From: Clostridiales bacterium | GTDB lineage: Bacteria > Bacillota > Peptococcia > DRI-13 > UBA5745 | Assembly (NCBI GenBank): GCA_009782505.1 | Contig: WRIW01000005.1 | Coordinates: 7,044 to 71,043, forward strand | Length of the DNA: 64,000 nt | Direction: 5' to 3' | Part shown: in pieces, positions 8,396-59,875 of the stretch | How positions within the stretch are numbered: position 1 is the first letter of the stretch | Layout of the letters: each line of letters opens with the position of its first letter | Program-made: the position numbers and the translations under genes | The notes under the pieces: generated by a model | What the model saw: only the letters and a program-made list of their open reading frames with translations | Told to the model about the DNA's origin: nothing | Databases searched by the model: none

Positions 8396-9640
8396 ATGGC
8401 AAATATTGCGGCAAAAAGCGATATCCCGGTCGCCGTAGAGAGCATAAGCGTCAGCATGTTTGGGGATTTCAAGCTCTTCGTGGGGGACCATGTCATCGAC
8501 GATAGGATAAGCCGCTCCCATAAGATGTGGGTACTGCTGGCTTACCTCATCATACACCGGAACCGCCATATCTCCCAGGAGGAGCTCATCGAGACCCTCT
8601 GGCCCGAGGAAGACAACGATAACCCGGCAAATGCCCTGAAGACCTTGCTCTACCGCACCAGGGCTTCCATCGCGGCGGTGCTGGGCGAGGAACCCCAGCT
8701 GATACTCTCCCAGCGGGGGTCATACTCCTGGAACCTGCAAATCGACTTGAAGGTGGACGCCGAGGAGTTCGACAGGCTCGTCTCCGTGGCCGCGGATATC
8801 AGCATAGACAGGCAGGTGCGCAAGGATCATTACCAAAGGGCAATGGAGCTGTACCAGCATGACTTCCTGCCCAAGCTCTCCGATCAGATGTGGGTCATAC
8901 CCTTTACCACGTATTACCACTACCTCTACCTGGATTCGGTCTTCGCCTGCGGCGACATGCTCCTTGAGGACGAGGAGTACGGCAAGCTTGCCGACTTGTG
9001 CAACCAGGCGGTGAGAATCGAGCCTTATGAGGAAAAGCTCTACATACTGCTCATCAAAGCCTTCCTGGCCCAGGGGAATACCATCGCCGCCGTGAGCCAG
9101 TACGAGAAAGCGACGGAGCTGCTCTACAAGAACTTGGGCGTCAAGCCTTCCGAGGCTCTGCGGGAGCTGTACCAGGAGATCATGAAGGAAAACAAACTCC
9201 TGGAGCTGGACCTCACCGTCATCCAGCAGGACCTCAGGGAAGCGGCCGAGCGGCCGGGCCCCTTCGTCTGCGAGTACGGCTTCTTCCGCGAAGCGTACCG
9301 GCTGGAGGCGAGGCGGGCGGCGCGCCAGGGCTCCAGCGTCCAAATCGCGCTGATCACGCTATCGTTGCCGGATGGCAAAAGCCCAACGCTGGCATTGCTG
9401 AATAAAACCATGGAGCAGGTGCTTAGCGTACTGGAGTACTGCCTGCGCAGGGGGGACGTAGTCTCCCGCTATAGCGGCGCCCAATTCGTCATCATGCTAC
9501 CCACGGCCAACTTTGAGGACGCCACGATGATATTGGATCGGATAGTCGCCATGTTCAACCAGAAGAACAGGAAATCATTCCTGATTTTAAATTATAAGAT
9601 TCAACAACTGGACTTGGATAAAATGAAGGCGTATAATTAA
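8396..9640 (+). CDS. SARP-like regulator (OmpR-type winged helix + BTAD) fused to a degenerate GGDEF-like domain
   Basis: The N-terminus FGDFKLFVGDHVI...WVLLAYLIIHRNRHISQEELIETLWPE...ALKTLLYRTR is a trans_reg_C/BTAD pattern. The TPR-like middle reads AMELYQHDFLP...YILLIKAFLAQGN. The C-terminus RRGDVVSRYSGAQFVIMLP aligns with R..D.vaRyGGDEFvill, but SGAQF replaces GGDEF. Confidence 0.8.
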   Translation: MANIAAKSDIPVAVESISVSMFGDFKLFVGDHVIDDRISRSHKMWVLLAYLIIHRNRHISQEELIETLWPEEDNDNPANALKTLLYRTRASIAAVLGEEPQLILSQRGSYSWNLQIDLKVDAEEFDRLVSVAADISIDRQVRKDHYQRAMELYQHDFLPKLSDQMWVIPFTTYYHYLYLDSVFACGDMLLEDEEYGKLADLCNQAVRIEPYEEKLYILLIKAFLAQGNTIAAVSQYEKATELLYKNLGVKPSEALRELYQEIMKENKLLELDLTVIQQDLREAAERPGPFVCEYGFFREAYRLEARRAARQGSSVQIALITLSLPDGKSPTLALLNKTMEQVLSVLEYCLRRGDVVSRYSGAQFVIMLPTANFEDATMILDRIVAMFNQKNRKSFLILNYKIQQLDLDKMKAYN

Positions 9641-10491
9641 TGGGAATTTATCATTCTTTCCAGGAAAGCAGGCTTGATAGACGAAAGAAAGAGAAACGTA
9701 GAAACATCATCATCACAACATATGTCCTGTTTGTCGCCGTCAGTATCGTCTCGATCATACAGTACAGGGCCTACCTCAGGGGCGAGGCGGAAAGCATGGC
9801 GGCGGCAGCTCTGTTGGCTCTGCCGGGGCCCGGGGGCAGAGAGGAGCCGGCGGTGATATGGCCGGATGAGCCGGCGGACACTCCGGCGGAAGGGTCAGAC
9901 GAGGCGCCCCCGGGGAACCAATCCACGGCGGAAGACGTCTATAAAGTGGAAGAGCCGCCCTACGACAAGCTTTTCATCACCGGGGAGAGGCGCCGCTACA
10001 AGGATCAGGATCTGACCCTCGTCATACCTAAGTTGAACAAGACGCTGCCCATATACAACGGCGTCACCCAGGAAGTATTGAAGAAAGGCGCGGGGCTGTA
10101 CGATTTCGCCCAGCTGCCCGGCGAGGGCAACCGAAACGTGAGCATAGCCGGCCACCGCAATACAAGCCGCTTCGGGGTGATCACCGACAACGCGCCGTTC
10201 TACTACATCGACAAACTGAAAGACGGTGATTATTTATACTTAACAGATGAGGAAAATGTTTACCGGTATCTCTATGAAGATACCAGGGTCGTCGAAGCCG
10301 ACGACTGGGGGCCCATCTACAGCCAGGGCTTTTCTTGCCTCACCATCACCTCCTGCACCCCCATCGGGATAGGGAGCCACAGGATAGTGGTAAGGGGCAG
10401 GCTGGATGAGATTTTTCCCCTGAGCGAGGGCTTTGAATACGTCCCGGAGACCGAGATCATGGAAGAGATCGTTGAGGATTTATTCCTATAA
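9640..10491 (+). CDS. sortase-family transpeptidase (class C/D-like), N-terminal membrane anchor
   Basis: Catalytic triad context NVSIAGHRN ... CLTITSCTPIGIGSHRIVVRGRL (His, TxxTC Cys, Arg). One N-terminal TM helix. Its ATG shares one nucleotide with the regulator stop (TAATG). Confidence 0.85.
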   Translation: MGIYHSFQESRLDRRKKEKRRNIIITTYVLFVAVSIVSIIQYRAYLRGEAESMAAAALLALPGPGGREEPAVIWPDEPADTPAEGSDEAPPGNQSTAEDVYKVEEPPYDKLFITGERRRYKDQDLTLVIPKLNKTLPIYNGVTQEVLKKGAGLYDFAQLPGEGNRNVSIAGHRNTSRFGVITDNAPFYYIDKLKDGDYLYLTDEENVYRYLYEDTRVVEADDWGPIYSQGFSCLTITSCTPIGIGSHRIVVRGRLDEIFPLSEGFEYVPETEIMEEIVEDLFL

Positions 10492-10509
10492 AGAATGGAG
10501 ATGATAACG

Positions 10510-11421
10510 ATGAAGAAAAAAACAAACCAATCCTTCCGGATGAGACTGACGGCTATCAGCTTGCTGCTGCTCTGCTTCACGGCGATGATCCCGGCCCCTG
10601 CCGCAGCCGCCATCGTCACCACGGTGGCGCAAAAGACGGGGGTGACCGTCCACAGCAATGACAAGGTCTCCATCGACGCGTCCAATCTGGCGGAAGGCTA
10701 TGTGATCGTAAAGTACACCGGGGGCAAGGACGTCCGGATAAAGGCGCAAATCGCCAAGACCGGCGGCTCCACCTACAGCTATGACATCAATTCCAAGGGA
10801 AACCCGGAGATACTGCCCATCACCGAGGGGGACGGGGCGTACTCCATAGGCGTATTCGAGAATGTCTCTGGCAGCAAGTATGCCCAGGCTTACGCGGCTA
10901 AGGTAGACGTCAAGCTGAGAGACCCCCTGCTGCCCTTCCTCTACGCCAACCAGTACGTGAACTACACGGCCGGCTCCGATGTGGACAAGAAGGCCCAGGA
11001 GCTGGTCAAAGGCGTCACCGACACGCTGGATAAGCTCACCAAGATCTATGATTTCGTCACAAGCACGCTGACTTACGACACGGTGCTGGCTGCCAACGTA
11101 CAGGCGGGCTATCTGCCCAATGTAAACGAAGTGCTGTCGAAGAAGAAGGGCATATGCTTTGACTACGCCGCCCTCATGTCATCCATGCTGCGGCTTCAGG
11201 GCATCCCATCCAGGCTTTGCATCGGATACGCCGGCACTGTGTATCACGCCTGGATAGACGTATACACCGAGGAAGCGGGCTGGATCAAGGAAGCGGTGAA
11301 GTTCGACGGGAAGAAATGGACCCTGATGGACCCCACATTTGTATCCACCTCCAACTCCGCCGACGCGGTGAAGAATTTCGTGGGCTCGGGCAATAGCTAC
11401 CAGCAAAAATATGTTTACTAG
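10510..11421 (+). CDS. secreted transglutaminase-like (Cys-His-Asp) protein
   Basis: Signal peptide MKKKTNQSFRMRLTAISLLLLCFTAMIPAPAAA. Transglutaminase core KKGICFDYAALMSSMLRLQGIPSRL..GY....HAW..V......W..MDPT. ATG 10510 follows GGAG; the track start 10495 is also possible. Confidence 0.8.
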   Translation: MKKKTNQSFRMRLTAISLLLLCFTAMIPAPAAAAIVTTVAQKTGVTVHSNDKVSIDASNLAEGYVIVKYTGGKDVRIKAQIAKTGGSTYSYDINSKGNPEILPITEGDGAYSIGVFENVSGSKYAQAYAAKVDVKLRDPLLPFLYANQYVNYTAGSDVDKKAQELVKGVTDTLDKLTKIYDFVTSTLTYDTVLAANVQAGYLPNVNEVLSKKKGICFDYAALMSSMLRLQGIPSRLCIGYAGTVYHAWIDVYTEEAGWIKEAVKFDGKKWTLMDPTFVSTSNSADAVKNFVGSGNSYQQKYVY

Positions 11422-11582
11422 TACCGCGTTGCATCTAAAAGTTAAGATTTATTTGCGAGGATATTCTTCGCAAGACAAGGCACGATGAGCGCGAATAGCC
11501 GCTGTGCTATTTAAGTGAAGAGTAACGCAGTATTGTGGAGAATAAACCGCAAATAAACTAACTTTTAGGTGCAACGTGGTAC
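11421..11582. repeat. long-stem hairpin element E2
   Basis: 11421-11457 pairs with 11548-11582 over about 35 bp, with two G-U pairs on the + strand and one 2-nt bulge. The left arm starts on the last base of the transglutaminase stop codon. The interior has hairpin 11493-11512 and the heptamer CACGATG that is also found in E1 and E3. Confidence 0.8.
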
Positions 11583-11613
11583 CTGATATATTTACTAAAA
11601 AAGGGGTTAGCGT

Positions 11614-12684
11614 ATGAGTACTGAGATCAAGACGAAGAAATCCGTCAGCCAGCTGAACGCTGAGGAGGTGTACCTTTTTTCGATGCAGATATCCCTGATG
11701 CTGAAGGCGGGCATCCTGCCCGCCGACGGCGTCGCCCTTCTGGAATCCGAAGCCGCCTCCGACCGGGAGAAAAAGCTTCTCAATCAGATGAAGGAGATAC
11801 TGGAGCAGGGCGAGCCCTTCTTCTCAGCGATGGAAGCCACGGGGGCTTTCCCCGAGCACGCCTTGCGCATGGTGCAGATCGGCGAAGACACGGGCCGCCT
11901 GGAGCAGGTGCTCGCCGCCCTTACGCTGCACTACCAGCAGGAGCATGAGCTCAGGGAAAACATGCGCCAGGCCGTGGTGTACCCCGCCTGGCTTGCCGTC
12001 ATCATCGGCATCGTGACCTTCGTGCTGGTCACCAGGGTGCTGCCCGTATTCCAGCAGGTGCTGGAGCAGCTTGGCTCCGGGCTCTCGCCCTGGGCTTCCT
12101 CCATCATGAAGATGGGCGTATTCACGAAGCAGGGGGCCATCGTATTCGCCGCTTTGCTCGCTGTATTTGCCCTGTATCTCTTCTTCAGCTCCCGCTCCCC
12201 CGAGGGGCAGGAAAAGCTAAGGCACCTGGCGGACATACTACTATTCCGCGGGGCGCTGGGGTTATCGGTATCTAGAGAAAGGTTTTCCTCCGCCATCTCC
12301 CTGAGCTTGGCCAGCGGCCTGAATCTCAACGACGCCATGGATAAGGCCATCTCCCTGGTAGACGACGATAAGATGCGCGTCAAGATCGAGCATTGCAAGG
12401 AGCTCCTGGAGCAGGGCACGACTTTTGCCGCCTCCGTGGAGCAGGCGGGCATATTCAACGGCCTGGAGATCGGTTTGATTTCCGCGGGCTTCAAAGCGGG
12501 CGCCAGCGAGGCGGTCATGCAGGAGCTGTCCAGGCGCTGCCACAATCAGACGGAAGAGATCATGTCCAAGATCATGTCCAGGATAGAGCCGATACTGGTC
12601 ATCTTCCTGGTGGTGGTTGTGGGGATGCTGCTTCTCTCCGTCATGCTGCCGCTCCTCGCCATGATGAACGCCATCGGCAGTTGA
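11614..12684 (+). CDS. type II secretion system F family / PilC-ComGB-like platform protein
   Basis: 356 aa with T2SSF-type repeats and three TM segments (LFSMQISLMLKAGILPADGV..., ...LISAGFKAGASE...EPILVIFLVVVVGMLLLSVMLPLL). Confidence 0.85.
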   Translation: MSTEIKTKKSVSQLNAEEVYLFSMQISLMLKAGILPADGVALLESEAASDREKKLLNQMKEILEQGEPFFSAMEATGAFPEHALRMVQIGEDTGRLEQVLAALTLHYQQEHELRENMRQAVVYPAWLAVIIGIVTFVLVTRVLPVFQQVLEQLGSGLSPWASSIMKMGVFTKQGAIVFAALLAVFALYLFFSSRSPEGQEKLRHLADILLFRGALGLSVSRERFSSAISLSLASGLNLNDAMDKAISLVDDDKMRVKIEHCKELLEQGTTFAASVEQAGIFNGLEIGLISAGFKAGASEAVMQELSRRCHNQTEEIMSKIMSRIEPILVIFLVVVVGMLLLSVMLPLLAMMNAIGS

Positions 12685-12733
12685 CAGGATGAGGCGGAGC
12701 CCATCTTGGATAGTTAGATATCGGAGGTAAGGT

Positions 12734-13054
12734 ATGTTCATCCGTAAGAAAGCTATGTCAAGAATCAAAGTGATCCTGCCGGTGATCCTCACGGCCATCG
12801 TCCTCTGGGGCGTCATGACCGGCGCGTCCAAGACCCAGGAGCAGGCGGCCGGGCAGGCGCAGAAGCTCACCGAGGAAAGCATACGCCGGGCGGCGGTCCA
12901 GTGCTACGCCCTGGAAGGCATCTATCCGGTGAATATCGAGTACCTCATGGACCACTACGGGATACGTCCCGATACGAACCGGTTTATCATTCATTATCAG
13001 TTTATCGCCGATAATCTTTTGCCGGATATCTCCGTGCTGCCCATCGAGCGATGA
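12734..13054 (+). CDS. small membrane-anchored pilin-like protein (GspG/ComGC-like globular part, no class III signal)
   Basis: RBS GGAGG. One N-terminal TM helix. IRRAAVQCYALEGIYPVNIEYLMDHYG resembles the major pseudopilin A..Y....G.YP..l..L signature. No G-F-T-L-x-E is present. Confidence 0.55.
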   Translation: MFIRKKAMSRIKVILPVILTAIVLWGVMTGASKTQEQAAGQAQKLTEESIRRAAVQCYALEGIYPVNIEYLMDHYGIRPDTNRFIIHYQFIADNLLPDISVLPIER

Positions 13055-13070
13055 CGAAGGGAGTGAGCCG

Positions 13071-13574
13071 ATGAACGGTGTGATAAAAGAAAGACAGGGG
13101 ATACGCGTAGACAGCGCCGGGGTGTTCTTATTGGGCGCCGTATTTCTTTTTTTATCCATCGGGCTGGTCATGATGGGCGGGTCCCTTTATCGCCATATCA
13201 TGGAAGTTTCAAACGAAAACGACGAAGCCAGGACGACGTTCTCCTACATCTCCAACCAGGTCCACCGGGCGGACGCCTCGGGGGGCGTGTCGGTAGGGGA
13301 GCTGGGGGGGCAGCCCGCCCTCCTGCTGGAGCAGCACTTCGGCGACTGGGAGTTCATCACCTACCTCTACTACTACGACGGCGCCCTCCGGGAACTCTTC
13401 GTCGAGAAGGGCACGGAGCTTGAGAAAGACGCCGGTCTGGCTATCGTCTGGCTAAGCGACCTGGGCTTTGAGCAGGACGAATCGGGCCTGATCACGGCTT
13501 GGGCCGTACTAACGAACGGGCGGAGGGAGCAGATATTGATTTCCCCGCGCACCATGGCAGAGGGGGTCGGCTGA
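13071..13574 (+). CDS. membrane-anchored protein, DUF4860/minor-pseudopilin-like
   Basis: 167 aa with one N-terminal TM (GVFLLGAVFLFLSIGLVMMGG). The soluble part (TTFSYISNQVHRAD...ITYLYYYDGALREL) resembles GspJ/ComGF-type minor pilins. The DUF4860 assignment is from memory. Confidence 0.5.
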   Translation: MNGVIKERQGIRVDSAGVFLLGAVFLFLSIGLVMMGGSLYRHIMEVSNENDEARTTFSYISNQVHRADASGGVSVGELGGQPALLLEQHFGDWEFITYLYYYDGALRELFVEKGTELEKDAGLAIVWLSDLGFEQDESGLITAWAVLTNGRREQILISPRTMAEGVG

Positions 13575-13999
13575 TGAAACGCCAACAATCCAGTTCCATC
13601 GTCTTCCTGACGGAGCTGTTCTTATCCCTGACGATATTTGCGTTATGCTCCTCCGTATGCGCGGGATTGTTTGCCTGGTCGTACCGCTACAGCAAGGACA
13701 GCAACGCCCTCAGCCGGGCCGTCATGGCTGCCCAGAGCTGCGCGGAAGCCTTCAAGAGGAACGATTCGGCACAGAGCCTGGCGGAGGCCCTGGGCGGTAC
13801 GGCGGGCGCCGGGAGCTGCCTGGTGTACTACGACGAAGACTGGACGCCTACCACCGCGGACCAGGCGTCTTTCATCCTCCGGGTGAGCATGAACCTGGAC
13901 ACGGGCATACGCCTGGCGGACATCGTCGTCTCCAACGCGGAAGACGCCGAAATCTTTAAGCTGGCTGCCTCGGCGCTCCTGACGGAGGTGAGGCCATGA
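13574..13999 (+). CDS. pseudopilin-like protein with out-of-register prepilin-like N-terminus
   Basis: Start at ATG 13574, overlapping the upstream stop (TGATG). The N-terminus MKRQQSSSIVFLTELFLSLTIF resembles a class III signal. However, it lacks Gly at -1 and the Glu is out of register. Confidence 0.55.
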   Translation: MKRQQSSSIVFLTELFLSLTIFALCSSVCAGLFAWSYRYSKDSNALSRAVMAAQSCAEAFKRNDSAQSLAEALGGTAGAGSCLVYYDEDWTPTTADQASFILRVSMNLDTGIRLADIVVSNAEDAEIFKLAASALLTEVRP

Positions 14000-14469
14000 G
14001 TGAGAAAAAAGGCAACCCCTTATACGGGATAGGCGGGGTGACCCTGCTGACTGTGCTCCTGGTGCTGTGCCTGACCTTGTTTTCCGTGCTGGCACTAAGC
14101 TCAGCCCAGGCGGATCGGCGCCTCAGCGAGAAAAGCGCCGCGTCGGTAACGGCTTACTATGAATCAGAAAATCAAATCCTGGAAATGATGAGGCAGATCG
14201 AGGGGATGTGGCCCGCGGGCCACAGGAGGCCCCAGGCCTCGGACATATCCGTCCGGCTCGCCTCCAAGTATGACGTATGGGTGGATACGGAGGGCGACGG
14301 CCTCATCATCTATACCGAGCTGCCCGTGATGGAGACCCAGACGCTGCAAGTCGAGGCCTACATCGGCCCCGGCGGCGACGGGGGGAGATGGGAAGTCCGC
14401 CAGTGGCAGCTCCTGCCCCCCGAGCAGGACGAAGGGGATATGGGCTTCCTCATCTTATGGGAGCCTTAA
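13996..14469 (+). CDS. pilin-like protein (E5-less minor pilin / PilX-ComGG-like)
   Basis: ATGA overlap with the upstream gene. The N-terminus ...GIGG|VTLLTVLLVLCLTLFSVLALS is followed by SAQADRRLSEKSAASVTAYYESENQ. Confidence 0.5.
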   Translation: MSEKKGNPLYGIGGVTLLTVLLVLCLTLFSVLALSSAQADRRLSEKSAASVTAYYESENQILEMMRQIEGMWPAGHRRPQASDISVRLASKYDVWVDTEGDGLIIYTELPVMETQTLQVEAYIGPGGDGGRWEVRQWQLLPPEQDEGDMGFLILWEP

Positions 14470-14526
14470 GCATACATATCTTCCAGGCTTAGGATTTGAA
14501 TTTCATAAAAGGAGCATAGGATAATT

Positions 14527-15594
14527 ATGGAAGTCACTGATATTCTCTCGAAAGCAATAGAGCACCAGGCGTCGGATATCCTGTTGATATCCGGCTTGCC
14601 CATTACGTTTAAAGGCAACGGCAAGATCATCCGCCTTGAAGGCGAGAGGCTGCTGCCGGAGAGCTGCGGCGATCTCATCGCGGAAATCTACAAGCTGGCG
14701 GGTAACCGGGACATGGAGACCATCCTGAAGGACGGGGACGACGACTTCTCCTTCTCCTTGCCGCAGCTGTGCCGGTTCCGGGTGAATACCCTCAGGCAGA
14801 GGGGCTCCCTGGCCGCCGTCATCCGGGTGGTATCCTTCGATATGCCGGACCACACGGAGCTGCAGATACCCGACGCGGTGATGAATTTCGCCAACTATAC
14901 GAAGGGCATGGTGCTGGTCACAGGCCCTGCCGGCAGCGGCAAATCCACGACCCTGGCCTGCCTGATCAACGAGATCAACCACAATAGGGACGCCCATATC
15001 ATCACCATCGAGGACCCCATCGAGTTCCTCCACCGCCACGACAAGAGCGTGGTGACCCAAAGGGAGCTCTCCAGCGACACCAGGAGCTATGAGGCGGCGC
15101 TGAGGGCGGTGCTGCGCCAGGCGCCGGACGTGATACTGCTGGGGGAGATGCGCGACTTCGAGACCATCAAGACGGCCATCACCGCCGCGGAGACCGGCCA
15201 TCTGGTGATATCCACCCTGCATACCATAGGCGCGGCGAACACCATCGACCGTATGGTGGACAGCTTCCCCCCGGAGCAGCAGCAGCAGATACGTATCCAG
15301 CTGGGCATGGTCCTCCAGGGGGTCGTATCCCAACAGCTGGTGCCGGCGCTGAACGGAAAGGTTTTACCCGCCTTCGAGGTCATGATCGCCAACAACGCCA
15401 TTCGGAACCTCATCCGCGAGTCCAAGGCCCATCAGATCGACAGCGTGATCTTTTCCTCCGCTTCCGAGGGTATGATCAGCATGGACACTTACTTGCTCAA
15501 CATGGTCAGGGATAAAAAGATATCCCCGGAGGAAGCGGTGAACTACAGCACCAACGGCGACCAGATGGTGAAGCGGCTTCAGGCGATGAAGTAG
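14527..15594 (+). CDS. pilT: PilT-family type IV pilus retraction-type ATPase
   Basis: 355 aa. Walker A GPAGSGKSTT; IITIEDPIEF; LRQAPDVILLGEMRD; AETGHLVISTLHT; AIRNLIRE. Size and motifs match PilT/PilU rather than the longer PilB/GspE type. Confidence 0.9.
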   Translation: MEVTDILSKAIEHQASDILLISGLPITFKGNGKIIRLEGERLLPESCGDLIAEIYKLAGNRDMETILKDGDDDFSFSLPQLCRFRVNTLRQRGSLAAVIRVVSFDMPDHTELQIPDAVMNFANYTKGMVLVTGPAGSGKSTTLACLINEINHNRDAHIITIEDPIEFLHRHDKSVVTQRELSSDTRSYEAALRAVLRQAPDVILLGEMRDFETIKTAITAAETGHLVISTLHTIGAANTIDRMVDSFPPEQQQQIRIQLGMVLQGVVSQQLVPALNGKVLPAFEVMIANNAIRNLIRESKAHQIDSVIFSSASEGMISMDTYLLNMVRDKKISPEEAVNYSTNGDQMVKRLQAMK

Positions 15595-15604
15595 GCGGTA
15601 TCCC

Positions 15605-16075
15605 ATGAGCCATGAAAAAGGCGCAAAACTCAATCATTACATGGCTTTCCTGCGGGTAGCCGTAGACGGATACGAGGCCGGGCGGATCTCCGGGAGCGTA
15701 TATAGCCGGCGGCTTAAGGCGCCCCTGCATTTTGCCACGACGAAAGACCTCCTGCTTCAGATAGAAGACCTGCTGGATACCCAGGATTTCCCCCGGGCAT
15801 TCCAGCGGAAGAGGACCTTCGCGGAGGGCAAGGCCCCGAAAGCCCCGGGGAGGCCCGTGGCGCCGGAAGAGGACGGCAGGGAAAACATGGACGCGGAGAC
15901 GGTGGATATGGCCCGGGGGAAGATCTCCACTTTCACGCTGAATGTGATCACCCGCCAGAATACATCTTGGCAGGGGTACCTGGACTGGCTGGACGGGGCG
16001 GACAGGCTGGCGTTTAACAGCGACTTGGAGCTTCTGTCCATGATTTCGGAGAGGCTGGAGCTTAGCGGGGGCTGA
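15605..16075 (+). CDS. hypothetical protein, last gene of the filament-like operon
   Basis: 156 aa with no TM helix. The C-terminal motif STFTLNVITRQNTSWQGYLDWLDG...FNSDLELLSMI is recalled from other small Clostridia proteins of unknown function. Confidence 0.5.
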   Translation: MSHEKGAKLNHYMAFLRVAVDGYEAGRISGSVYSRRLKAPLHFATTKDLLLQIEDLLDTQDFPRAFQRKRTFAEGKAPKAPGRPVAPEEDGRENMDAETVDMARGKISTFTLNVITRQNTSWQGYLDWLDGADRLAFNSDLELLSMISERLELSGG

Positions 16076-16104
16076 GCGCGCACTGATACTGTTCACTGAT
16101 TGCG

Positions 16105-16128
16105 GACGCCGGCGGACGGCGTCTTTTT
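16105..16128 (+). terminator. Rho-independent terminator of the filament-like operon
   Basis: Stem GACGCC / GGCGTC (16105-16110 / 16118-16123) with loop GGCGGAC, followed by TTTTT. Confidence 0.75.
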
Positions 16129-23005: not shown

Positions 23006-23256
23006 TGCCCCGCTGATTAATTCAATGGTTTATTAAACACCATAATAGTGTTATTTCGATTTCATCACACTCTCATTCTACATTCAACCCCCTTTCATTG
23101 TAGTATTATTTATCACAACCAATAGAAATGCACAGAAAAACTATACAATAAGAGATGGAGCATGTTATAATAAACCGCCATGACTATGGCTTTTGCGAAA
23201 TCTCTTGTTTTTCTATCTGTCTCAATACGCCTGTATAAAAAATGGAGGGGTCGTTT

Positions 23257-26200
23257 ATGTTTAAACCAGTCAGTAAGGCAAACCGTTGGATGAGCGCGGC
23301 ATTGGCTTTGGTATTCCTCTTTTCCATCGCCGTGCCGGCTTTTGTAGCCTGGGGCGTGGATGAATCCGCCGGTGTAGTGGCGGAAGGCGGGGACGCGGCG
23401 CCCGGCGGCACGGAGGAGCCTGGCGAAGGCGACGGCTCCGGCGAAGCCGGGGACGAGGCATTGGAGCCGGACGAAGGGGAGGCGGAGAGCGGCCCCGGTA
23501 AGGCAGGCGACGGCAGCGGCGCAGGCGCGGGCTTGCCTATGTTTGCCGGGATCAACGCCCTGGCGGCGGCCTTAGGCGAGGACAACGGCCTCTTCGAGCC
23601 CTTGGGCGGCGGCATGGGCATCATGGCGCTGGACGGGGAGATCGGGCTCTTCGCGGCGGGGGACGCCAATTCGGACTTAGCGAATTTCATTACCAGCGTG
23701 GTGGTCAGGGATTCCTCGGGAACCTTGATGAATGACGCCAGCTACTACTACATCGGTGATACTTACGAGTTCACCATCGACTTTACGGAGCACGCGGGCA
23801 CAGACGGGCAATTTGAATATGACTTCGATGACTTTCTGACTTATCAGCTGCCGGAATATTTAAAGATAACGAGTCCAGTTGAAGGTGATATCCATGTCGC
23901 CAGCAGCGCCGCAGGAGCCGCTCCGGGCGCGACAGTAAAAGTTGGTCAATACACTATCGATACTTCTGGATTAGTTAAGGTGCGGTTTAACGACATCGAT
24001 ACAGCAGGTTATGATATCGAGGAAAACTTCATCGACCATTATACCAACGCCTGGTTTAGCCTGGCGATTGAAGCGGATCTGATTTCAGCGCCCAGCGGGG
24101 GCAGGGTGGTATTTGGCGCGGACGCCATCGTGAATATAAAAGTCTATGTCGCGCCTCCGGACGCCGCCGTTGTGAGCGTCAGCAAGACCGGGACGCCCAT
24201 TACAGGCGACAAGATCAATTATGAGGTAACCATCACCGCTTCCGGCAACACCGTGAAAAACATCGTTTTTAACGACTACCCATGGATCAAGAAGAGTAGC
24301 AGTGGGAGTAATTTAACGATTACGAATCCGGATAACGCCAATACCGCATATACGAACTTTTCGTATATTATCTATGACGCTTCGGGGAGTCCCAGAACAG
24401 GTTCGGTAGAGATGAGCGGCGGCGTGTGGGCGCCGGCGACCGGTACAGGCACGACTACCGGCACGACAAACTTCCGCACCCATTATATCTATGACTTTTC
24501 CGCGGTGGAGTTGGAGCCAGATGAAAAAATCGTCGTGACTTATACCCTGGACGTACAGAAGCTGATGGCGAACAACGGCTTGTACACGAGCGATAACGCC
24601 GAATCCTTAAACTATTATCTGGACGTAGGGAATGATGTAAAGGTAGAGAGCAATGCCGTCATAGCAAGCACGTTTGATCCGGCTGGTCATCATTACTCGA
24701 AGTCATTTGCGTTTACGAAAGTCGGCAGCGAAGGCGCCGCTGAGAATACGATTGATTGGATAGTAACTGTAGGTAAGTCTGGTCCAACAGAGGAACCTCT
24801 TAACGGCGGAGAAATCAGAGATTCCCTTAACGTAGCAAGCACGGCTCTGACCGGATCGTCGAACATGCCCGCGGATAGCGCGATTGAAATCACCCTAGTA
24901 GAGAGCGGTAGCATAAGCAACATCTTTACAGCTGATAAAATACCAGGGTTTAGCTTTACAGGGAATGAATTTCGATTTACTATCCCGGCGAATCTAACGT
25001 CATTAGTCGATAAAGGCGGAACTTCAAGGACGATCGGCAATGTTTATCAGGTGATAGTCAAATACGCGTCTACCTACTCAACACCGGCAAGCGGGACAAG
25101 CCCTGTTATATTCGGAAATACGGCGTATTACCATGAATTGAGCGTATCCGATACGGTTTCAGTTACGCCGCCTGCAAGGAAAGAAGAGACGACCGTAACT
25201 AAGTCAGGCGGCTGGACGCAAAGCGAATATGACAACAAGATCACTTGGCAATGCGATATCGGCGGTGGTATTGAAGAACTTACTTCGTCTGTCATTTCCG
25301 ACAAATTAGCGGCGACTGTTGGCGAGGACGATATCTCTGGCTTTATGGGTATGCCGGATAAGAGCAAGATAAAGGTTGTAGTGTATGGAGCACCGACCTA
25401 TCACGATACCGTGAATAATGTAATGAAATTCCAAACCTCCGATATCATTTTTAATGATTATGCCAATCATGCTAGTATTAACAGTTCATTTTTAATTGAT
25501 GGAGATAATAAGGGATTCTCCTTCAAAATTCCAAATCTCGGTAAAGATATCTACCGTGTCTATATCGAGTATACGACGGATATCCTGCTGCCTATCCCGG
25601 ACGACGCCGGCGACTTTGTATATAAGAATGAAGTCGATCTTGACGGCGGGAAATCAGATTACGACGAGTTTGTCATCCAGAGACCAGCAGCTGGAGAGAA
25701 ATCATATAAAACCGGCGACTGGAACGGGGAGGACATCGAGTGGGAAATCAAAATCGGTGACGGGACTGTCCCGCTGAATCTTATAACAATAACCGACACT
25801 CTCAGTTCTGATTTGGCAAGTATAATAGAATTGCCTAACGCGAATAAAATTAATATCGACATATATGGCAGGCCTTCGGGCGTATTAGGAGGCAAAGCTG
25901 ATTTTAAAGATAGAGATTTAATTGGCGAATACACTGCGGATGTTTTTACTTCTGATTTCACAATAAACGGCGATAAATCGGAATTCGTATTTACAGTTCC
26001 AGAAAATAACCCGAATGGTGGTACATTTGGCGCTATTTATCAAATAATCATCACTTATGCCACTCCGCTTTCGATTCTGCCAGACATCAATGAGGATTTT
26101 GACTATGTGAACGAGTTGGCATTATCGAATGAAATAGTCATCGATCCGGTATATGTAACAATACCCGGACCAATCCCAGGGAAATTTATCCATAAATGGG

Positions 26201-29200
26201 GCGTACCCGTCGGGCTTAGCGTAAGGGATGGGATAGAATGGACGAGTTCAATCGGCAACGGCATTGAGCCGCTAAACGGGCAAACCATAACCGATACGCT
26301 CATTGTGATTGGCGATGGGACAATGAAATTCCCGGTGCAAGAAGACATACAAATCCGCTTCTATGGGAAACCAACAGACATAGCCGACGGCAATGTCGCG
26401 GTATTCCATCCGGTGGATGATTTGCTGTGTACTTTTGATGTAGATGGTGGCGATTACGATGAACTGGAATTCGAGTTTATCGGGGATGACGAATTTCAAT
26501 TTACCGTTCCCAAAAGCATAAGTGACGGTGGGTCGTATGATATTTACGGCATCGTGATTACCTATACTACGCCTGTTGAGGGGCCAAAGTTTGGGAATAC
26601 TAGCGCGGCGACTTACTCGAATAGAATAGGGATCGACTTAGATATAGAATACGATACCTCAACTGAGGAAAGCGGGTCTCACACCGTCAGTGTTCCGACG
26701 CTAAAAACTTCATTTGGCTCGAAAACCGGTGTAAAAGACGGCGTTGTCGATAACAAAATCAAGTGGACCAGCATCATTGGCAACGGCTCGTTGCCATTAA
26801 ATGGGCAAACGATAACAGATACGATTTCCGGCGGTGGAAAAGCAACTCTCCTTAATGACAGCGATTTTAAAATCAAACTTTATGGAAGCCCGTCGAGCAT
26901 CGATAGCAGCAACGTAGTGGACTTCTGCGAGGATGACTTGATTGGTGAATTTACCCCCACGCATTTTGGAGCGGACTTTGCAATAAAAGATAATGGCTTT
27001 ACATTTGATGTACCAACGACCAATCCAATAACATCGGATGTTTTTGAAAACATCTATCAAATCCAAATCGAATACTCAACAACGGTGGATAAACCAGTGC
27101 TTGGGGACAGCAACTTCGATTATGTGAATAAGGTCGAAGTCGGAGGAAAAACCATCACTTCTAATACCGTTCACTATGCCGCGCCTCAGCCTATGCCGCC
27201 ATCAATCATCAAGTCGTCGAAAATGATAAAAATCAGCTCCGGAGATTATGCTGGCCAGGTTGGTATGGAGTATACGGTAGAGATAACTGTACCGGAAGGG
27301 AACAAAGGCAAAAGGTTCTATCTGCAGGACGTCCTGAACGTGAACGGCGGCTCAAACATCGGCGTCAAGAATATTCCACTGAACTTCAGCGCTGAGATTA
27401 GCCCGGCGCCGTCCGGCAGCGAACCGGCATTCGACGCCAGTTCGTACAATCTGGTGACCAGCGCCGCCAGTAATACGTATTATGTATATTTCCCTAAAAC
27501 CGCTACATCGTCAACGACAACGGCGTGGCAGTACAGCACCGTAAAGACTCTTACTATCTCCTATGTTATCCCGTTTGATCGCACAGAAACCACAGGAACC
27601 AGGACGATCGAGGAACTGTTGAAAGCTTCCAGCGCGAATCGGCTTACGAATACGGCGACGGTGCAGGGAGCTTCCGGTGTAAACTATACGACAAATAACG
27701 CCTGGCCCGTGCATAAGAGCGTAAGGGCAGTGGCAGGCGACCCGACGCTATTTGAGTACACGGTGACGATAAACGGAAACTCGGCTTACCGACAAAGCTT
27801 ATTCGAAGCCGATGAAAGCGCTGTATTCATCGATGATTATGACCCGGCACTGATGTATGTGCCCAAGTCGTTTTATGCCATTAATTATGTCGGCGCTACC
27901 AGCATAACATACGGACCTTATGATGGAACGGGGATCATTGGCGGCGGGAGCGTAACTGAAATGCGAAGCGGGGATCCTCCAGCGTTGGCAGTAAATGAGA
28001 GCAGCGGCTCGCTCACTGTGCATCTGGAAGAACTGAACCAACTGAAATGGTCCAGCAATCTCGCGGCGTCAAGCGTGCAAGGGATTCCTGACAATGAAAC
28101 ATGGTACGCGGACAGCAATATGATCGAGATACACTACCAGCTGCGGATCAAAGACCCCAGCGCTATAGAGGAAAGGTTTACTGTATTAAAAAATAGCGCT
28201 TCGATCACTTCGAATGTGCAGAGCCTGATATTCTCAAACAACGCGTCTGTGACCTATGAGATGAAGCCGCTTGGCAAATCATGGAAGAATAATACCGGTT
28301 CAAGCGTGATCGGCGCGGAAATCATCATTAACCCGCAGGGCGCCAGGCTCGCGCCGGTAGGCGACGGCCGGTACACGGCAATCGACACCATGAGCGACAA
28401 TCTGGTGATCTTCCTGGGAAGCGTAAAGTTTTATACACAGGCGAAAGTCGGCGGCACATGGAACGGCGTGTGGGGAACTCCCTTTGACGCCGCTACTATC
28501 CCGGGCGCACTATGGAGCGTGGCTATCGATCCCATCGACTCAAACGTAACCTATTTTGTCCTGCCGGACGAGCAACCGATAAAAATCACATACGACGCGT
28601 TTGTAACGGAGCAGCCGGGTGTTACGTCCACATTGATGAACAGCATTGAAGTATGCGGCTATTATCAGAAAGCGGACGATCTCAGCTACAAAGTCATTAA
28701 CGCCAGCGCGGGCGCGGGCGCCCACCGAGTCGACCTGACCTTGCAGAAAACAGATATCGATACGGGCGTAGGTTTGCCCGGCGCTGAGTTTGAGCTCTAC
28801 ATCGGCTTCCCGCCGGATTACGACAAGTTTGACAACACCGCCGGATCGGTGCTTAAAGTAGAAGATTCAAGTGGAGTGGAATATGCTTTCTACCGAGTCG
28901 AAGACCTGGCGAATCCCATTGTTACAGGAGCGAACGGGAAGGCGACGATCAGTTCGGGGTGGCTGGTGGGGTCGCACAATTTCGTCTACCTCTTAGTCGA
29001 AAAGATAGCGCCTTCGGGGGATTACCTACTTCCCAGAGGCTCTGACGCATACACATTCTTTACCCTTGCCGGCAATAAAATGACCTCCGCGCAGCTCACC
29101 GCCCTCAATGCCGCGTTTGGAACGGTGTACCGCAATGTAACCGATACTGTGCCTGTAGCGAACAGCGTGGCGACTTGCGCCGCAGCCATCGACGGGACGA

Positions 29201-30462
29201 AAGCCCTCGAAGGTATTGAAGAGACAAACAAGCCCTTCACGTTCAATGCGGTACAGGTGACAGGGATGGAAAGCGATACGCCGGTCGCCGGGGGCTTAAG
29301 TGGCTCAAGCATCATAACGGGCGCGGGCGGATTCAGTATCGAAATCGACGGACTACTTAAATCCGGGAGCCCGTACTACTTCAAGGTCAGCGAGGATCAG
29401 ACCGGCAACGGTTTGAGGGGCTGGATCTATGACGAACACGCGTTCTGGGTGACGGTCACCGTAGCGGAGCAGGCGGACGGTACGCTGGGCGCTACGGTTT
29501 CGAGCCCAAGCGGAAGCACGACGTTTACCAACCAGTACGAGAAAGAAGACTTCGGGCCGGGCAACGCGCATATCCGGTTTGTGAAAATCATCAAGGGGCG
29601 GGTATCCACCGAAGAGATATTCACCTTTGACTTAGTCGAAGTGGCGGATCCCGAAGGCGGCGCGAAGAGCAATCCATTTACCAAGCGGGTCACGACGACG
29701 GGAAGCTTGACCCAGGATGTGGGGCAACTCCTCGAAGTCGAAATCAACGATTTGGCGCCCGGGAAGTATTACTTCAAAATCACGGAAAACAGCGACAGTA
29801 AGAAATCCGGATGGACCTATTCGACGCTCACTTATATCGTGGAAGTCATCGTGTATGACGACCTGGTCGTCGATATCAATTATCCGGACGTATACTCCAG
29901 CGGTTATCCGCCCGAGTTCACCAACACCTACAAAGCGCCGAGCGACCCGCCGGACGACCCGCCTGGCGGCGGCGACCCGCCTCCGGGGGTGACGCCTCCC
30001 GGCGGTACCGATCCCCCTCCCGGCGGAAATGAGGGCGACGACGACGCGGACGGCGACGGAGACGCCGATGGTGATGCCGATGGCGATGGCGACGGAGACG
30101 GAGACGGCGGCCGCGGCGGCGGCGATGAAGAAGAACCCTATGTAGAAGGCGGGCACTTCCACGATGTACCGCCCCTGGCCCACAGGCAGGGCGACAACAT
30201 CGTATGGGTGGACGACGAGCACTACATCGAGTTTGACGAGGACGGCGTACCCCTGGGCGAATGGCACTGGGACGACGAGTTGGAGGAATGGATATTTGAC
30301 GAGTTCCCGCCTCTGGGGGCGCTTCCCAGAACAGGCGCCGTAGCGATACCGGCGGCGCTATCCCTGATGTTGGGCGGTTCCTCGCTGGGCGCGATGACGG
30401 CGCTGAGGAAAAACGCGAAGAAGCGCGGGGCACACAACAAGATCAAGGGAGCATCACACTGA
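23257..30462 (+). CDS. giant LPXTG-anchored surface protein 1 (about 2400 aa)
   Basis: GGAGGGG RBS, ATG 23257 and signal peptide MFKPVSKANRWMSAALALVFLFSIAVPAFVAWG. The body has five divergent repeats of roughly 165-175 aa. A SpaA/CnaB-like domain follows (LQKTDIDTGVGLPGAEFELY...YLLVEKIAPSGDY). Two Spy0128/FctA-like pilin-isopeptide domains are present (FTFNAVQV...YYFKVSEDQ; FTFDLVEV...YYFKITENSD). The C-terminus has a P/G and D-G acidic tract, then LPRTG (30322-30336), a TM helix and a basic tail. Confidence 0.9.
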   Translation: MFKPVSKANRWMSAALALVFLFSIAVPAFVAWGVDESAGVVAEGGDAAPGGTEEPGEGDGSGEAGDEALEPDEGEAESGPGKAGDGSGAGAGLPMFAGINALAAALGEDNGLFEPLGGGMGIMALDGEIGLFAAGDANSDLANFITSVVVRDSSGTLMNDASYYYIGDTYEFTIDFTEHAGTDGQFEYDFDDFLTYQLPEYLKITSPVEGDIHVASSAAGAAPGATVKVGQYTIDTSGLVKVRFNDIDTAGYDIEENFIDHYTNAWFSLAIEADLISAPSGGRVVFGADAIVNIKVYVAPPDAAVVSVSKTGTPITGDKINYEVTITASGNTVKNIVFNDYPWIKKSSSGSNLTITNPDNANTAYTNFSYIIYDASGSPRTGSVEMSGGVWAPATGTGTTTGTTNFRTHYIYDFSAVELEPDEKIVVTYTLDVQKLMANNGLYTSDNAESLNYYLDVGNDVKVESNAVIASTFDPAGHHYSKSFAFTKVGSEGAAENTIDWIVTVGKSGPTEEPLNGGEIRDSLNVASTALTGSSNMPADSAIEITLVESGSISNIFTADKIPGFSFTGNEFRFTIPANLTSLVDKGGTSRTIGNVYQVIVKYASTYSTPASGTSPVIFGNTAYYHELSVSDTVSVTPPARKEETTVTKSGGWTQSEYDNKITWQCDIGGGIEELTSSVISDKLAATVGEDDISGFMGMPDKSKIKVVVYGAPTYHDTVNNVMKFQTSDIIFNDYANHASINSSFLIDGDNKGFSFKIPNLGKDIYRVYIEYTTDILLPIPDDAGDFVYKNEVDLDGGKSDYDEFVIQRPAAGEKSYKTGDWNGEDIEWEIKIGDGTVPLNLITITDTLSSDLASIIELPNANKINIDIYGRPSGVLGGKADFKDRDLIGEYTADVFTSDFTINGDKSEFVFTVPENNPNGGTFGAIYQIIITYATPLSILPDINEDFDYVNELALSNEIVIDPVYVTIPGPIPGKFIHKWGVPVGLSVRDGIEWTSSIGNGIEPLNGQTITDTLIVIGDGTMKFPVQEDIQIRFYGKPTDIADGNVAVFHPVDDLLCTFDVDGGDYDELEFEFIGDDEFQFTVPKSISDGGSYDIYGIVITYTTPVEGPKFGNTSAATYSNRIGIDLDIEYDTSTEESGSHTVSVPTLKTSFGSKTGVKDGVVDNKIKWTSIIGNGSLPLNGQTITDTISGGGKATLLNDSDFKIKLYGSPSSIDSSNVVDFCEDDLIGEFTPTHFGADFAIKDNGFTFDVPTTNPITSDVFENIYQIQIEYSTTVDKPVLGDSNFDYVNKVEVGGKTITSNTVHYAAPQPMPPSIIKSSKMIKISSGDYAGQVGMEYTVEITVPEGNKGKRFYLQDVLNVNGGSNIGVKNIPLNFSAEISPAPSGSEPAFDASSYNLVTSAASNTYYVYFPKTATSSTTTAWQYSTVKTLTISYVIPFDRTETTGTRTIEELLKASSANRLTNTATVQGASGVNYTTNNAWPVHKSVRAVAGDPTLFEYTVTINGNSAYRQSLFEADESAVFIDDYDPALMYVPKSFYAINYVGATSITYGPYDGTGIIGGGSVTEMRSGDPPALAVNESSGSLTVHLEELNQLKWSSNLAASSVQGIPDNETWYADSNMIEIHYQLRIKDPSAIEERFTVLKNSASITSNVQSLIFSNNASVTYEMKPLGKSWKNNTGSSVIGAEIIINPQGARLAPVGDGRYTAIDTMSDNLVIFLGSVKFYTQAKVGGTWNGVWGTPFDAATIPGALWSVAIDPIDSNVTYFVLPDEQPIKITYDAFVTEQPGVTSTLMNSIEVCGYYQKADDLSYKVINASAGAGAHRVDLTLQKTDIDTGVGLPGAEFELYIGFPPDYDKFDNTAGSVLKVEDSSGVEYAFYRVEDLANPIVTGANGKATISSGWLVGSHNFVYLLVEKIAPSGDYLLPRGSDAYTFFTLAGNKMTSAQLTALNAAFGTVYRNVTDTVPVANSVATCAAAIDGTKALEGIEETNKPFTFNAVQVTGMESDTPVAGGLSGSSIITGAGGFSIEIDGLLKSGSPYYFKVSEDQTGNGLRGWIYDEHAFWVTVTVAEQADGTLGATVSSPSGSTTFTNQYEKEDFGPGNAHIRFVKIIKGRVSTEEIFTFDLVEVADPEGGAKSNPFTKRVTTTGSLTQDVGQLLEVEINDLAPGKYYFKITENSDSKKSGWTYSTLTYIVEVIVYDDLVVDINYPDVYSSGYPPEFTNTYKAPSDPPDDPPGGGDPPPGVTPPGGTDPPPGGNEGDDDADGDGDADGDADGDGDGDGDGGRGGGDEEEPYVEGGHFHDVPPLAHRQGDNIVWVDDEHYIEFDEDGVPLGEWHWDDELEEWIFDEFPPLGALPRTGAVAIPAALSLMLGGSSLGAMTALRKNAKKRGAHNKIKGASH
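24650..27180 (+). repeat. five divergent tandem protein repeats of about 165-175 aa inside adhesin 1
   Basis: A recurring W-x-x-x-IG-x-G-x-x-PLNG-x-x-ITDTL block occurs at about 24751, 25239, 25736, 26233 and 26758. Each unit ends in an IYQ[VI].I.Y.T-like strand. The region is visibly AT-rich. Confidence 0.75.
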
Positions 30463-42090: not shown

Positions 42091-42843
42091 TCAGCCCCCT
42101 TTCAGCACGGCTTCACCGCCGAGGCTCATCTCGATATCGTCCCTGCCCAGGAACGCGAAGGCCGCTTCCACGACAGCCTTGCCGCATATATTCGCGTATT
42201 TCTTCACCATGGTGATGTCGTAGAGGTTATTGAGCTCGGAGAATATGGAAGTCTTGGTGAACTTCGACACGCCGGTGATGAAGACGAGCCTCAGGTAGCG
42301 GTCCATAGACTTGAGTATACCGTAGAATCCCTTGATGACCGCGCGGTTGGCTTCCGTAGCCTCGACGTCGGTGAGGTGATCCAGAATGGGCTTGTCGTAT
42401 TCGTCGATGAGCACGACGACCTTTTGGTCGTTTTTTTTATATAAGGCTTCGATCAGGCCTTTAAATAAATCCGCCGCTTTCCCGGGGGCGGGGTCGAAGC
42501 CGTTGGCTTTATAATGTCTTCGCAACTCAAAGGAAAGGGATTCGTCAAACACTTCCGGCGTACTATTTTGAACGCCGCTCATATCCAGCAGTATCACAGG
42601 ATGCATAGGGAAATCGTAATCTGAATCGTAAATCCACAGACCTTTAAAAAGCTCTTTGTCGCCGCTGAAAGCCTCGGCTATGGTGTCCAGCAAGAGCGAC
42701 TTTCCAAACCGCCTGGGGCGGGACAGGAAGTAGCAGCCCGCGGCGTGGATGACGTCATAGATATATTTGGTTTTATCGGCGTAAACACTATTGTCTTCGA
42801 CGATTTTACGAAAGGTTTGTACCCCTAATGGCAGTTTTTTCAT
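42091..42843 (-). CDS. AAA-ATPase_like (PF09820-type) N-terminal domain protein, apparently truncated
   Basis: MKKLPLGVQTFRKIVEDNSVYADKTKYIYD...LSRPRRFGKSLLLDT...VVLIDEYDKP...FITGVSKFTKTSIFSELNNL is the family N-domain. Full-length members carry a C-terminal PDDEXK_9 domain that is missing here. The stop lies 3 nt before the next gene. Confidence 0.65.
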   Translation of the reverse strand: MKKLPLGVQTFRKIVEDNSVYADKTKYIYDVIHAAGCYFLSRPRRFGKSLLLDTIAEAFSGDKELFKGLWIYDSDYDFPMHPVILLDMSGVQNSTPEVFDESLSFELRRHYKANGFDPAPGKAADLFKGLIEALYKKNDQKVVVLIDEYDKPILDHLTDVEATEANRAVIKGFYGILKSMDRYLRLVFITGVSKFTKTSIFSELNNLYDITMVKKYANICGKAVVEAAFAFLGRDDIEMSLGGEAVLKGG

Positions 42844-59844: not shown

Positions 59845-59875
59845 CAAATAATCATAATTATCAGGAGTGGTCGAT

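Follow-up and report, generated by a model that had tools for sequence, protein, structure and literature searches.

A candidate type IV filament module of gut Clostridia that combines a PilC-type platform, a PilT-family ATPase and a transglutaminase-like enzyme

Can a locus that encodes a pilus-type platform, a few small membrane proteins and, as its only motor, a PilT-family ATPase be a type IV filament system in its own right? This question is raised by a gene cassette in a 64,000-nucleotide stretch of a Clostridiales genome (contig WRIW01000005.1; the whole stretch is called the window here). On the plus strand, a gene for a PilC-like platform (11614-12684; 356 amino acids, aa) is followed by four small open reading frames (ORFs), termed P2, P3, P4 and P5 and starting at 12734, 13071, 13574 and 13996, by the gene for the PilT/PilU-family ATPase (14527-15594; 355 aa) and by orf156 (15605-16075; 156 aa). 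All four small ORFs are likewise on the plus strand: P2 ends at 13054 (106 aa), P3 at 13574 (167 aa), P4 at 13999 (141 aa) and P5 at 14469 (157 aa). We give roughly an even chance to the view that the cassette forms a distinct type IV filament module, conserved among Clostridia, in which P3 to P5 would form a pseudopilus or tip on the dedicated PilC platform, powered by PilT in most lineages and coupled to a transglutaminase-like exoenzyme encoded upstream.

Conservation and extent of the cassette

Alignments of DUF4860 (PF16152), the Pfam family to which P3 belongs (88.9 bits against a cutoff of 25, E = 2.2e-25), were used to scan genome and metagenome collections and gave 51 loci; more loci were added by look-ups with single proteins. 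Synteny across the related loci was determined by tblastn with ten proteins of the window. Wherever the contig is long enough, the genes follow the order regulator, sortase (optional), transglutaminase-like enzyme, PilC, P2, P3, P4, P5, PilT and orf156 (optional), and the order persists as protein identity falls from 95% to about 30%. A sequence-only reading of the same DNA had proposed to check whether the gene order is conserved in related Clostridia, and it does recur, in more than 30 distinct loci. They come from termite gut, rumen and human gut, with Flavonifractor sp. DFI.6.63 and Hungatella effluvii K170097C1 among their sources. The same order in dozens of independent contigs is more than chance would produce. 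The cassette is also larger than the platform-to-orf156 block described before, as a regulator, a sortase (in some lineages) and the transglutaminase-like enzyme lie upstream on the same strand.

No other gene accompanies the PilC/small-protein core as constantly as that for this secreted transglutaminase-like enzyme (10495-11421, plus strand; Pfam Transglut_core, E = 6e-22, 78.4 bits against a cutoff of 23). It is present in nearly all loci directly upstream of PilC, and in locus L033 it is found between P5 and PilT. The protein consists of a Sec signal peptide, a β-rich domain of about 120 aa and the transglutaminase core, with a C221, H251 and D279 triad that is invariant in 11 divergent homologues.

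The seven ORFs from the platform to orf156 lie where the sequence-only reading had placed them, and all the motifs that it quoted (GPAGSGKSTT, IITIEDPIEF, GEMRD, AETGHLVISTLHT, IRRAAVQCYALEGIYPVNIEYLMDHYG, SSSIVFLTE and GG-VTLLTV) are present. The overlapping stop and start codons by which it had coupled the last three small ORFs were also found, namely TGATG at 13572-13576 between P3 and P4 and ATGA at 13996-13999 between P4 and P5. These overlaps indicate a single operon, whose end is probably marked by a terminator-like GC hairpin and T-run behind orf156 (16104-16124, plus strand; an eight-pair stem with six GC pairs and the tail TTTTCT). An Rfam scan detected no riboswitch within the operon.

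Comparison of the loci shows that the core consists of the transglutaminase-like enzyme, PilC and the four small proteins, and that PilT is usual and not universal. No PilT is found in L034, L041 and L014, and L018 has the sortase and lacks the transglutaminase. A further variant is present in Simiaoa-type Lachnospiraceae of the human gut (L036, L058 and L059). Here, genes for a membrane GGDEF protein that carries GGNEF, an extracytoplasmic function (ECF) sigma factor, a 170-aa protein that is a putative anti-sigma factor and a transglutaminase lipoprotein precede PilC and P2 to P5, and the cassette adjoins a convergent rpoC, with rpoB. Within the assembly collection, 3,729 blocks contain the Simiaoa DUF4860 protein, and the assemblies inspected are mostly of human-gut origin. 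Searched against 1.84 billion clusters of 50% identity, the DUF4860 profile itself finds 2,945 representatives with E<=0.001. The cassette is thus widespread in gut Clostridia, and it is unstudied: the literature search returned nothing on DUF4860, on PilT together with a transglutaminase or a pseudopilin, or on PilT/PilC in Lachnospiraceae or Ruminococcaceae, and likewise nothing on Flavonifractor or Hungatella with PilT or on the layout of the cassette.

Motor, platform and small proteins

Judged by its family scores and motifs, the ATPase is a true member of the PilT/PilU family and not an assembly-type enzyme. It reaches 409.7 bits with the NCBIfam model pilT_fam (TIGR01420; cutoff 319.1) and E = 4e-48 with Pfam T2SSE, compared with 143 bits for ComGA (cutoff 300), 127 for PilB, 125 for GspE (cutoff 630) and 43 for the TadA-type model (cutoff 373), so that the earlier assignment to the PilT family stands. 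Among solved structures, Aquifex PilT is matched over the full length with 302 bits and PilB with 98 bits. All boxes are intact (NNAIRNLIRE, the Walker A motif GPAGSGKST, the Asp box IITIEDPIE, the Walker B motif LLGEMRD and the His box TGHLVISTLHT), and AIRNLIRE is a hallmark of PilT. The protein has about 350 aa and no N1 domain. PADLOC models gave generic P-loop matches for the ATPase only, and the cassette is not among the known anti-phage defence systems.

The missing parts were searched for in the window and in 63 related loci (716 kb in total), and the results apply to the locus, not to the organism. Neither a further PilT/PilB-type ATPase nor another platform was detected; E. coli GspO, GspL and GspM have no homologue there, and none of the hydrophobic ORFs carries a G-x-G-D-x-K peptidase motif. 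A secretin is not present at the locus, and PilM, PilN and PilO are not among the Pfam labels of neighbouring genes, although no search was aimed at these three. The earlier observation that the window holds neither a prepilin peptidase nor a PilB/GspE-type ATPase can thus be extended to the 63 loci. The description of the ATPase as sole motor is correct for the locus and overstated for the cassette in general, since the widespread Simiaoa-type cassette carries no ATPase at all.

The platform is a short two-domain protein of the PilC/GspF/ComGB type, as proposed before. Two stretches match Pfam T2SSF (2.4e-34), corresponding to two T2SSF domains, and PDB entry 3jc8 (PilC) is matched with 5.5e-29. 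The NCBIfam models for GspF, PilC and ComGB score 159, 142 and 122 bits, all under their equivalog cutoffs (240 for ComGB), and the protein is about 50 N-terminal residues shorter than GspF.

The gene behind the ATPase, orf156, had been regarded as an orphan; it is instead a conserved partner with homologues in seven loci (L004, L007, L010, L018, L019, L026 and L030), found after PilT in many lineages. The family comprises soluble proteins of 145-156 aa with two related small domains and the C-terminal motif RQNTSWQG..W......F.S.LE, and it has no match in family models or PADLOC. In L062, a 147-aa ORF occupies the same place, assigned by position alone. A single-domain paralogue of 62 aa is encoded divergently upstream of the regulator in L007 (5774-5962, minus strand), and short orf156-like matches occur at the equivalent position upstream of the regulator in L009, L026 and L028.

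The N-termini of the small proteins carry the clearest traces of a pilin-like nature. In P4, compared across 33 distinct sequences, a short basic leader and [RK]-[ST]-x precede the motif [LVI]-F-L-x-E. Counted from the start of the hydrophobic block, Glu occupies position +5 in all 33 sequences and Phe position +2 in 32. The Glu of SSSIVFLTE, formerly considered out of register, is therefore in register, and the element that P4 lacks is Gly at -1. This position is taken by Ala or Ser in 18 of the 33 sequences, by Pro in five and otherwise by V, T, I, Q, H or R, the only Gly being that of Hungatella in a canonical G|IFMME. An alignment by hhalign sets the Glu of P4 on E5 of E. coli GspI, below significance.

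P5 shows the reverse pattern. Throughout the 30 distinct sequences compared, a basic leader ends in a Gly directly before a hydrophobic segment of 21 residues, which is followed by S-A-x-A-D; position +5 is Leu and no Glu is present. By this pattern P5 resembles the Glu-less minor subunits of the GspK/ComGG/PilX type, in agreement with the earlier comparison of its N-terminus to minor pilins without E5. The P5 segment GVTLLTVLLVLCL was aligned by hhalign with GVALLIVLMLLAL of GspK, again without significance. Cleavage by a prepilin peptidase is the best explanation for the invariant Gly of P5, so that this subunit, at least, is probably processed by an enzyme encoded outside the cassette.

In P3, an Asp is conserved at the membrane boundary, and neither Gly nor Glu is conserved; Gly at -1 is found in the clade of the window only and is replaced by Leu, Phe or Val in other lineages. 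P2 has no Gly or Glu signal features. The notion that all four proteins lack class III signals goes too far, given the Glu of P4 and the Gly of P5.

Evidence on the folds comes from AlphaFold (AF2) models of P3 and P5, set against the general architecture of type IV pilins, in which a long N-terminal helix is followed by an antiparallel sheet. The P3 model (mean predicted local distance difference test, pLDDT, 83.4) has an N-terminal helix of 56 residues (15-70) followed by eight β-strands, a predicted topology that is GspJ/PilW-like. The P5 model (pLDDT 81.4) combines a helix of 60 residues (12-71), a short helix and a four-stranded antiparallel sheet. A Foldseek comparison of such models had been recommended by the sequence-only reading; both models have a pilin-like topology, and neither has a PDB match at E<0.001. 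Of the 50 matches listed for P3, the XcpV/XcpW minor pseudopilin 5bw0_A has the best probability and TM-score (probability 0.85, TMq 0.43), and the matches listed also include the Thermus pilin TTHA1219 and the XcpGHIJK model. No pilin is among the matches listed for P5. The assignment of P3 as GspJ/ComGF-like is consistent with its predicted topology, whereas hhalign against GspJ is not significant and the Pfam ComGF model is not matched.

The profile comparisons with pilins gave no significant match. P2, P4, P5 and orf156 have no match at threshold in Pfam or NCBIfam, profile searches of the four small-protein alignments against PDB sequences returned chance matches only, and Pfam scans of every alignment member gave no N_methyl, ComGF or T2SSG match. 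A comparison of the four families with one another by hhalign revealed no detectable paralogy, and none of their hhalign comparisons with E. coli GspG, GspJ, GspI and GspK is significant. Below threshold, 19 of 25 members of the P5 family match NCBIfam ComGG_2 (best E 0.002) and six match GspI, and homologues of P4 give matches to ComGF, ComGG, PilV, ComGE, GspK and XpsI. A full-library search with the DUF4860 profile found no bridge to a known pilin family among the 150 matches listed, all of which are proteins of about 150-340 aa that match over most of the profile. P2 is a bitopic protein with a basic N-terminus, a Pro-containing transmembrane helix and the conserved motif R..V.CYA.EG.YP....YL...YG, and it has no family match in Pfam or NCBIfam and no PDB match. 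The GspG/ComGC-type signature that had been recognised in it is present as a motif, but it has no support beyond inspection by eye, and hhalign gives no significant match to E. coli GspG. Altogether, a pilin fold of the small proteins is plausible from the P3 and P5 models; the earlier description of all four as pilin-like agrees with these two predicted topologies and is weakly supported on the whole.

Relation to known systems and competing readings

The described layouts of type IV pili (T4P), Com, Tad and type II secretion systems (T2SS) had been judged not to fit this locus, and indeed no equivalog model for any of them is reached. By analogy, the working of the cassette would most resemble a Com or T2SS pseudopilus or a type IVa pilus (T4aP) priming complex. 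With the ComG pseudopilus (ComGA-GG) it shares the monoderm host, a compact operon, a platform of about 350 aa that matches the ComGB profile from end to end, an ATPase with about 350 aa and no N1 domain, and four to five small subunits (100-170 aa), of which the last is Glu-less, P5 being likened to ComGG through its matches below threshold. In contrast to ComG, the ATPase belongs to the PilT family and is encoded at the end of the operon instead of the start, no canonical KGFTLxE subunit and no link to competence genes are present (no ComGC-type match was found among NCBIfam models), and the cassette has a transglutaminase-like partner and a SARP/GGDEF or ECF regulator.

The T2SS tip (GspH-I-J-K with GspF and GspE) is similar in combining a platform with several small helix-plus-sheet subunits, and the similarities of P3 to XcpV/XcpW, of the P5 N-terminus to GspK and of the P4 Glu to E5 of GspI, all below significance, point the same way. 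In T2SS, cargo genes sometimes adjoin the machine genes, as the gene for the exported enzyme does here. Unlike a T2SS, the cassette has no GspE-type ATPase, secretin, GspC, GspL, GspM or GspG-type major pseudopilin, and its host is monoderm.

The T4aP minor-pilin/PilY1 complex with PilT is comparable in its PilT-family ATPase with AIRNLIRE. The fimU-pilVWX-pilY1 genes encode minor pilins together with a larger non-pilin extracellular protein, a combination that is also seen in the cassette. Of the T4aP parts list only PilC and PilT are present locally; the cassette locus differs from T4aP in the absence of PilB, PilD and a major pilin, in having a PilC of its own and in a partner that is a transglutaminase-like enzyme and not PilY1.

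As far as the available excerpts show, Caulobacter Tad/CpaF and the MSHA pilus of V. cholerae are precedents for a single ATPase that performs extension and retraction and for PilT aiding extension (PMC6668835, PMC9815625). The single motor of Tad is of the TadA/CpaF type, whereas the cassette has a single two-domain PilC-type platform and an ATPase with a TadA-type score of 43 bits; MSHA, unlike the cassette, keeps a dedicated extension ATPase. In excerpts of a survey of the type IV filament superfamily, PilT appears as an accessory retraction paralogue, the system trees are built from PilB, and a PilT-only class is not mentioned (PMC6668835). A SpoIIIA-like feeding-tube module was also considered and ruled out, as the score of the ATPase lies above the PilT cutoff and the platform is of the two-domain PilC kind.

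In the filament module that we favour, P3 would be a GspJ/PilW-like subunit, P4 the subunit bearing Glu(+5) and P5 a Glu-less cap with Gly(-1) of the ComGG/GspK kind. The three would most likely build a short pseudopilus or a tip/priming complex on the platform, with P2 as a further subunit or, alternatively, a membrane anchor. The PilT-family ATPase, probably co-transcribed in most lineages, the window included, with an orf156-type cytoplasmic protein, would turn the platform and thereby, as we infer, insert and extract subunits. In this way a short, dynamic structure would arise, by which the transglutaminase-like enzyme is carried, positioned or activated at the Gram-positive wall or through it. 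Expression would be driven by a SARP/BTAD activator with a degenerate GGDEF domain that keeps RxxD and may sense cyclic di-GMP (c-di-GMP); in the Simiaoa-type variant, the ECF sigma factor and the membrane GGDEF protein would take over this role.

Several observations weigh against this reading. PilT-family motors are known to act in disassembly and are not known to act in assembly. No ATPase is encoded within 10 kb of the Simiaoa-type cassette, so the ATPase can be supplied in trans or may be dispensable. An obvious major pilin is not encoded in the cassette. None of P2 to P5 reaches the cutoff of a Pfam or NCBIfam pilin model, and no profile or structure comparison ties them significantly to pilins (E>0.07 in Foldseek, E>0.01 in hhalign). 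Finally, P2 and P3 are without both Gly(-1) and Glu(+5), and P4, with Gly at -1 in a single sequence, might escape canonical peptidase cleavage.

Part of this evidence would also suit an accessory module of a conventional T4P or Com system, a possible explanation that we consider somewhat unlikely. It assumes that the cassette contributes a platform, minor pilins with their enzyme and a retraction ATPase, with PilB or ComGA, PilD and the major pilin supplied from another locus. Such an arrangement would account for the missing major pilin and for the prepilin peptidase that the Gly of P5 calls for, and the ATPase-less Simiaoa-type cassette demonstrates that the core exists without a motor of its own. 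The combination of minor pilins and a large non-pilin partner likewise recalls the fimU-pilVWXY1 priming complexes. According to excerpts of the superfamily survey, PilT-family enzymes normally act with PilB (PMC6668835). However, a mere minor-pilin and retraction module has no need for its own PilC platform, and PilC and PilT, tightly conserved in one operon, look like a dedicated pair. In addition, the cassette is never found beside PilB or PilD in the 63 loci, and P2, P3 and most P4 sequences have no cleavable canonical signal.

A bolder alternative to the favoured module, which we regard as unlikely, is an autonomous type IV filament machine. Here the PilT-family ATPase would be the only motor, driving both assembly and retraction or acting as a pure extractor, and the subunits would be independent of the canonical prepilin peptidase. 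Its output would be coupled to the transglutaminase-like enzyme or the sortase, in that the pseudopilus delivers the enzyme or the enzyme covalently modifies the pseudopilus or the cell wall. The independence from the peptidase is derived from the Ala, Ser or Pro at -1 of P4 and from the other conserved N-termini of P2 and P3; the Gly of P5 suggests cleavage for this subunit.

It is improbable, in our estimate, that no filament is formed and that the small proteins are bitopic assembly or anchoring factors (PilN/PilO/GspM-like proteins or chaperones), which form with PilC and PilT a membrane complex for exporting, maturing or regulating the transglutaminase-like enzyme or the sortase. The lack of significant pilin matches in Foldseek, PDB profile, Pfam and hhalign comparisons, the lack of paralogy among the four proteins, the resemblance of the P2 and P3 N-termini to ordinary signal anchors and the constancy of the transglutaminase-like neighbour would all be in line with this view. 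Yet the predicted helices of 56-60 residues with all-β or α+4β domains suit pilins better than the αββ-αββ fold of PilN/PilO, and the invariant Glu of P4 and Gly of P5 are type IV pilin hallmarks that are difficult to reconcile with plain anchors. Moreover, the transglutaminase-like enzyme has a Sec or lipoprotein signal of its own.

That the cassette is decaying or a chance grouping of ORFs without function, a view with nothing in its favour beyond five proteins without annotation, is hardly conceivable and is excluded by the conservation data, given the intact catalytic motifs of the ATPase and the transglutaminase, the synteny across more than 30 distinct lineages and the large numbers of DUF4860 representatives and Simiaoa-type blocks.

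If the PilT-type ATPase is the only motor, the cassette challenges the division of labour between assembly and retraction among such ATPases. Should the transglutaminase-like enzyme prove to be cargo or a modifier of the filament, it would represent a new output of type IV filaments in Gram-positives, and an autonomous machine would constitute a type IV filament class that is new and common in gut Clostridia. Even the conservative interpretation as an accessory module would give a role to four unannotated protein families. The strain-style names of Flavonifractor sp. DFI.6.63 and Hungatella effluvii K170097C1 suggest cultured isolates, in which case the cassette is directly testable.

Regulator, sortase and other features of the window

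The gene at the head of the cassette in the window (8396-9640, plus strand), and in most related loci, encodes a regulator with a BTAD domain (Pfam, 8.8e-21), a winged-helix Trans_reg_C domain (7.7e-9) and a C-terminal GGDEF domain (9.3e-6, residues ~335-395). In the latter, YSGAQF replaces GGDEF, and RRGD is located five residues upstream, a spacing that we take to be that of the RxxD inhibitory I-site by which GGDEF domains bind c-di-GMP. This suggests a c-di-GMP-sensing activator of the SARP (Streptomyces antibiotic regulatory protein) type. A TwoAYGGAY motif (Rfam RF01731; 8044-8203, plus strand) was detected about 190 nucleotides upstream of the regulator gene on the same strand; its score is 50.4 bits, where the gathering score is 43 (E 4e-6). 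Seven related loci, among them the close relative L019, gave no match at that threshold.

The sortase gene (9640-10491, plus strand; Pfam Sortase 8.2e-24, NCBIfam sortase_fam 88.7 bits against a cutoff of 39.35) encodes an N-terminal transmembrane segment, an acidic, Pro-containing linker and the catalytic domain, and its best PDB matches are class C sortases. The gene is in the same position in L018, L019 and L062, and the short contig L052 has a sortase match upstream of the transglutaminase; the sortase is a lineage-specific addition to the cassette. No LPxTG-type sorting signal is found in any cassette protein. The window encodes three giant surface proteins on the plus strand (23242-30462, 2406 aa; 30612-34316, 1234 aa; 44819-50347, 1842 aa) that end in LPRTG or LPKTG, a transmembrane segment and a basic tail, the first with an FctA domain. 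Polymerisation or anchoring of the small proteins by the sortase was ruled out, as none of them carries an LPxTG-type signal and the three giant proteins of the window do. From these sorting signals, the sortase probably serves the giant surface proteins and is co-regulated with the cassette.

The stretch from the transglutaminase stop codon to the start of PilC contains a near-perfect hairpin of 165 nucleotides (11421-11585; minimum free energy -77.7 kcal/mol, z = -10.3), with two mismatches in 24 positions of the arms. It occurs once in the window and is missing in the close relative L019, where the gap measures about 35 nucleotides, and it looks like an inserted palindromic element.

Ten other mid-sized ORFs of the window encode housekeeping or transport proteins. 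Regions of lower GC content (about 0.45-0.52) hold a gene for a predicted AAA-ATPase_like protein (42091-42843, minus strand; PF09820, 2.5e-59) and one with a weak match to the antitoxin-like AbiEi_4 family (59867-60637, plus strand; E 1e-4, 22.8 bits, cutoff 25), and both regions may represent mobile or defence islands.

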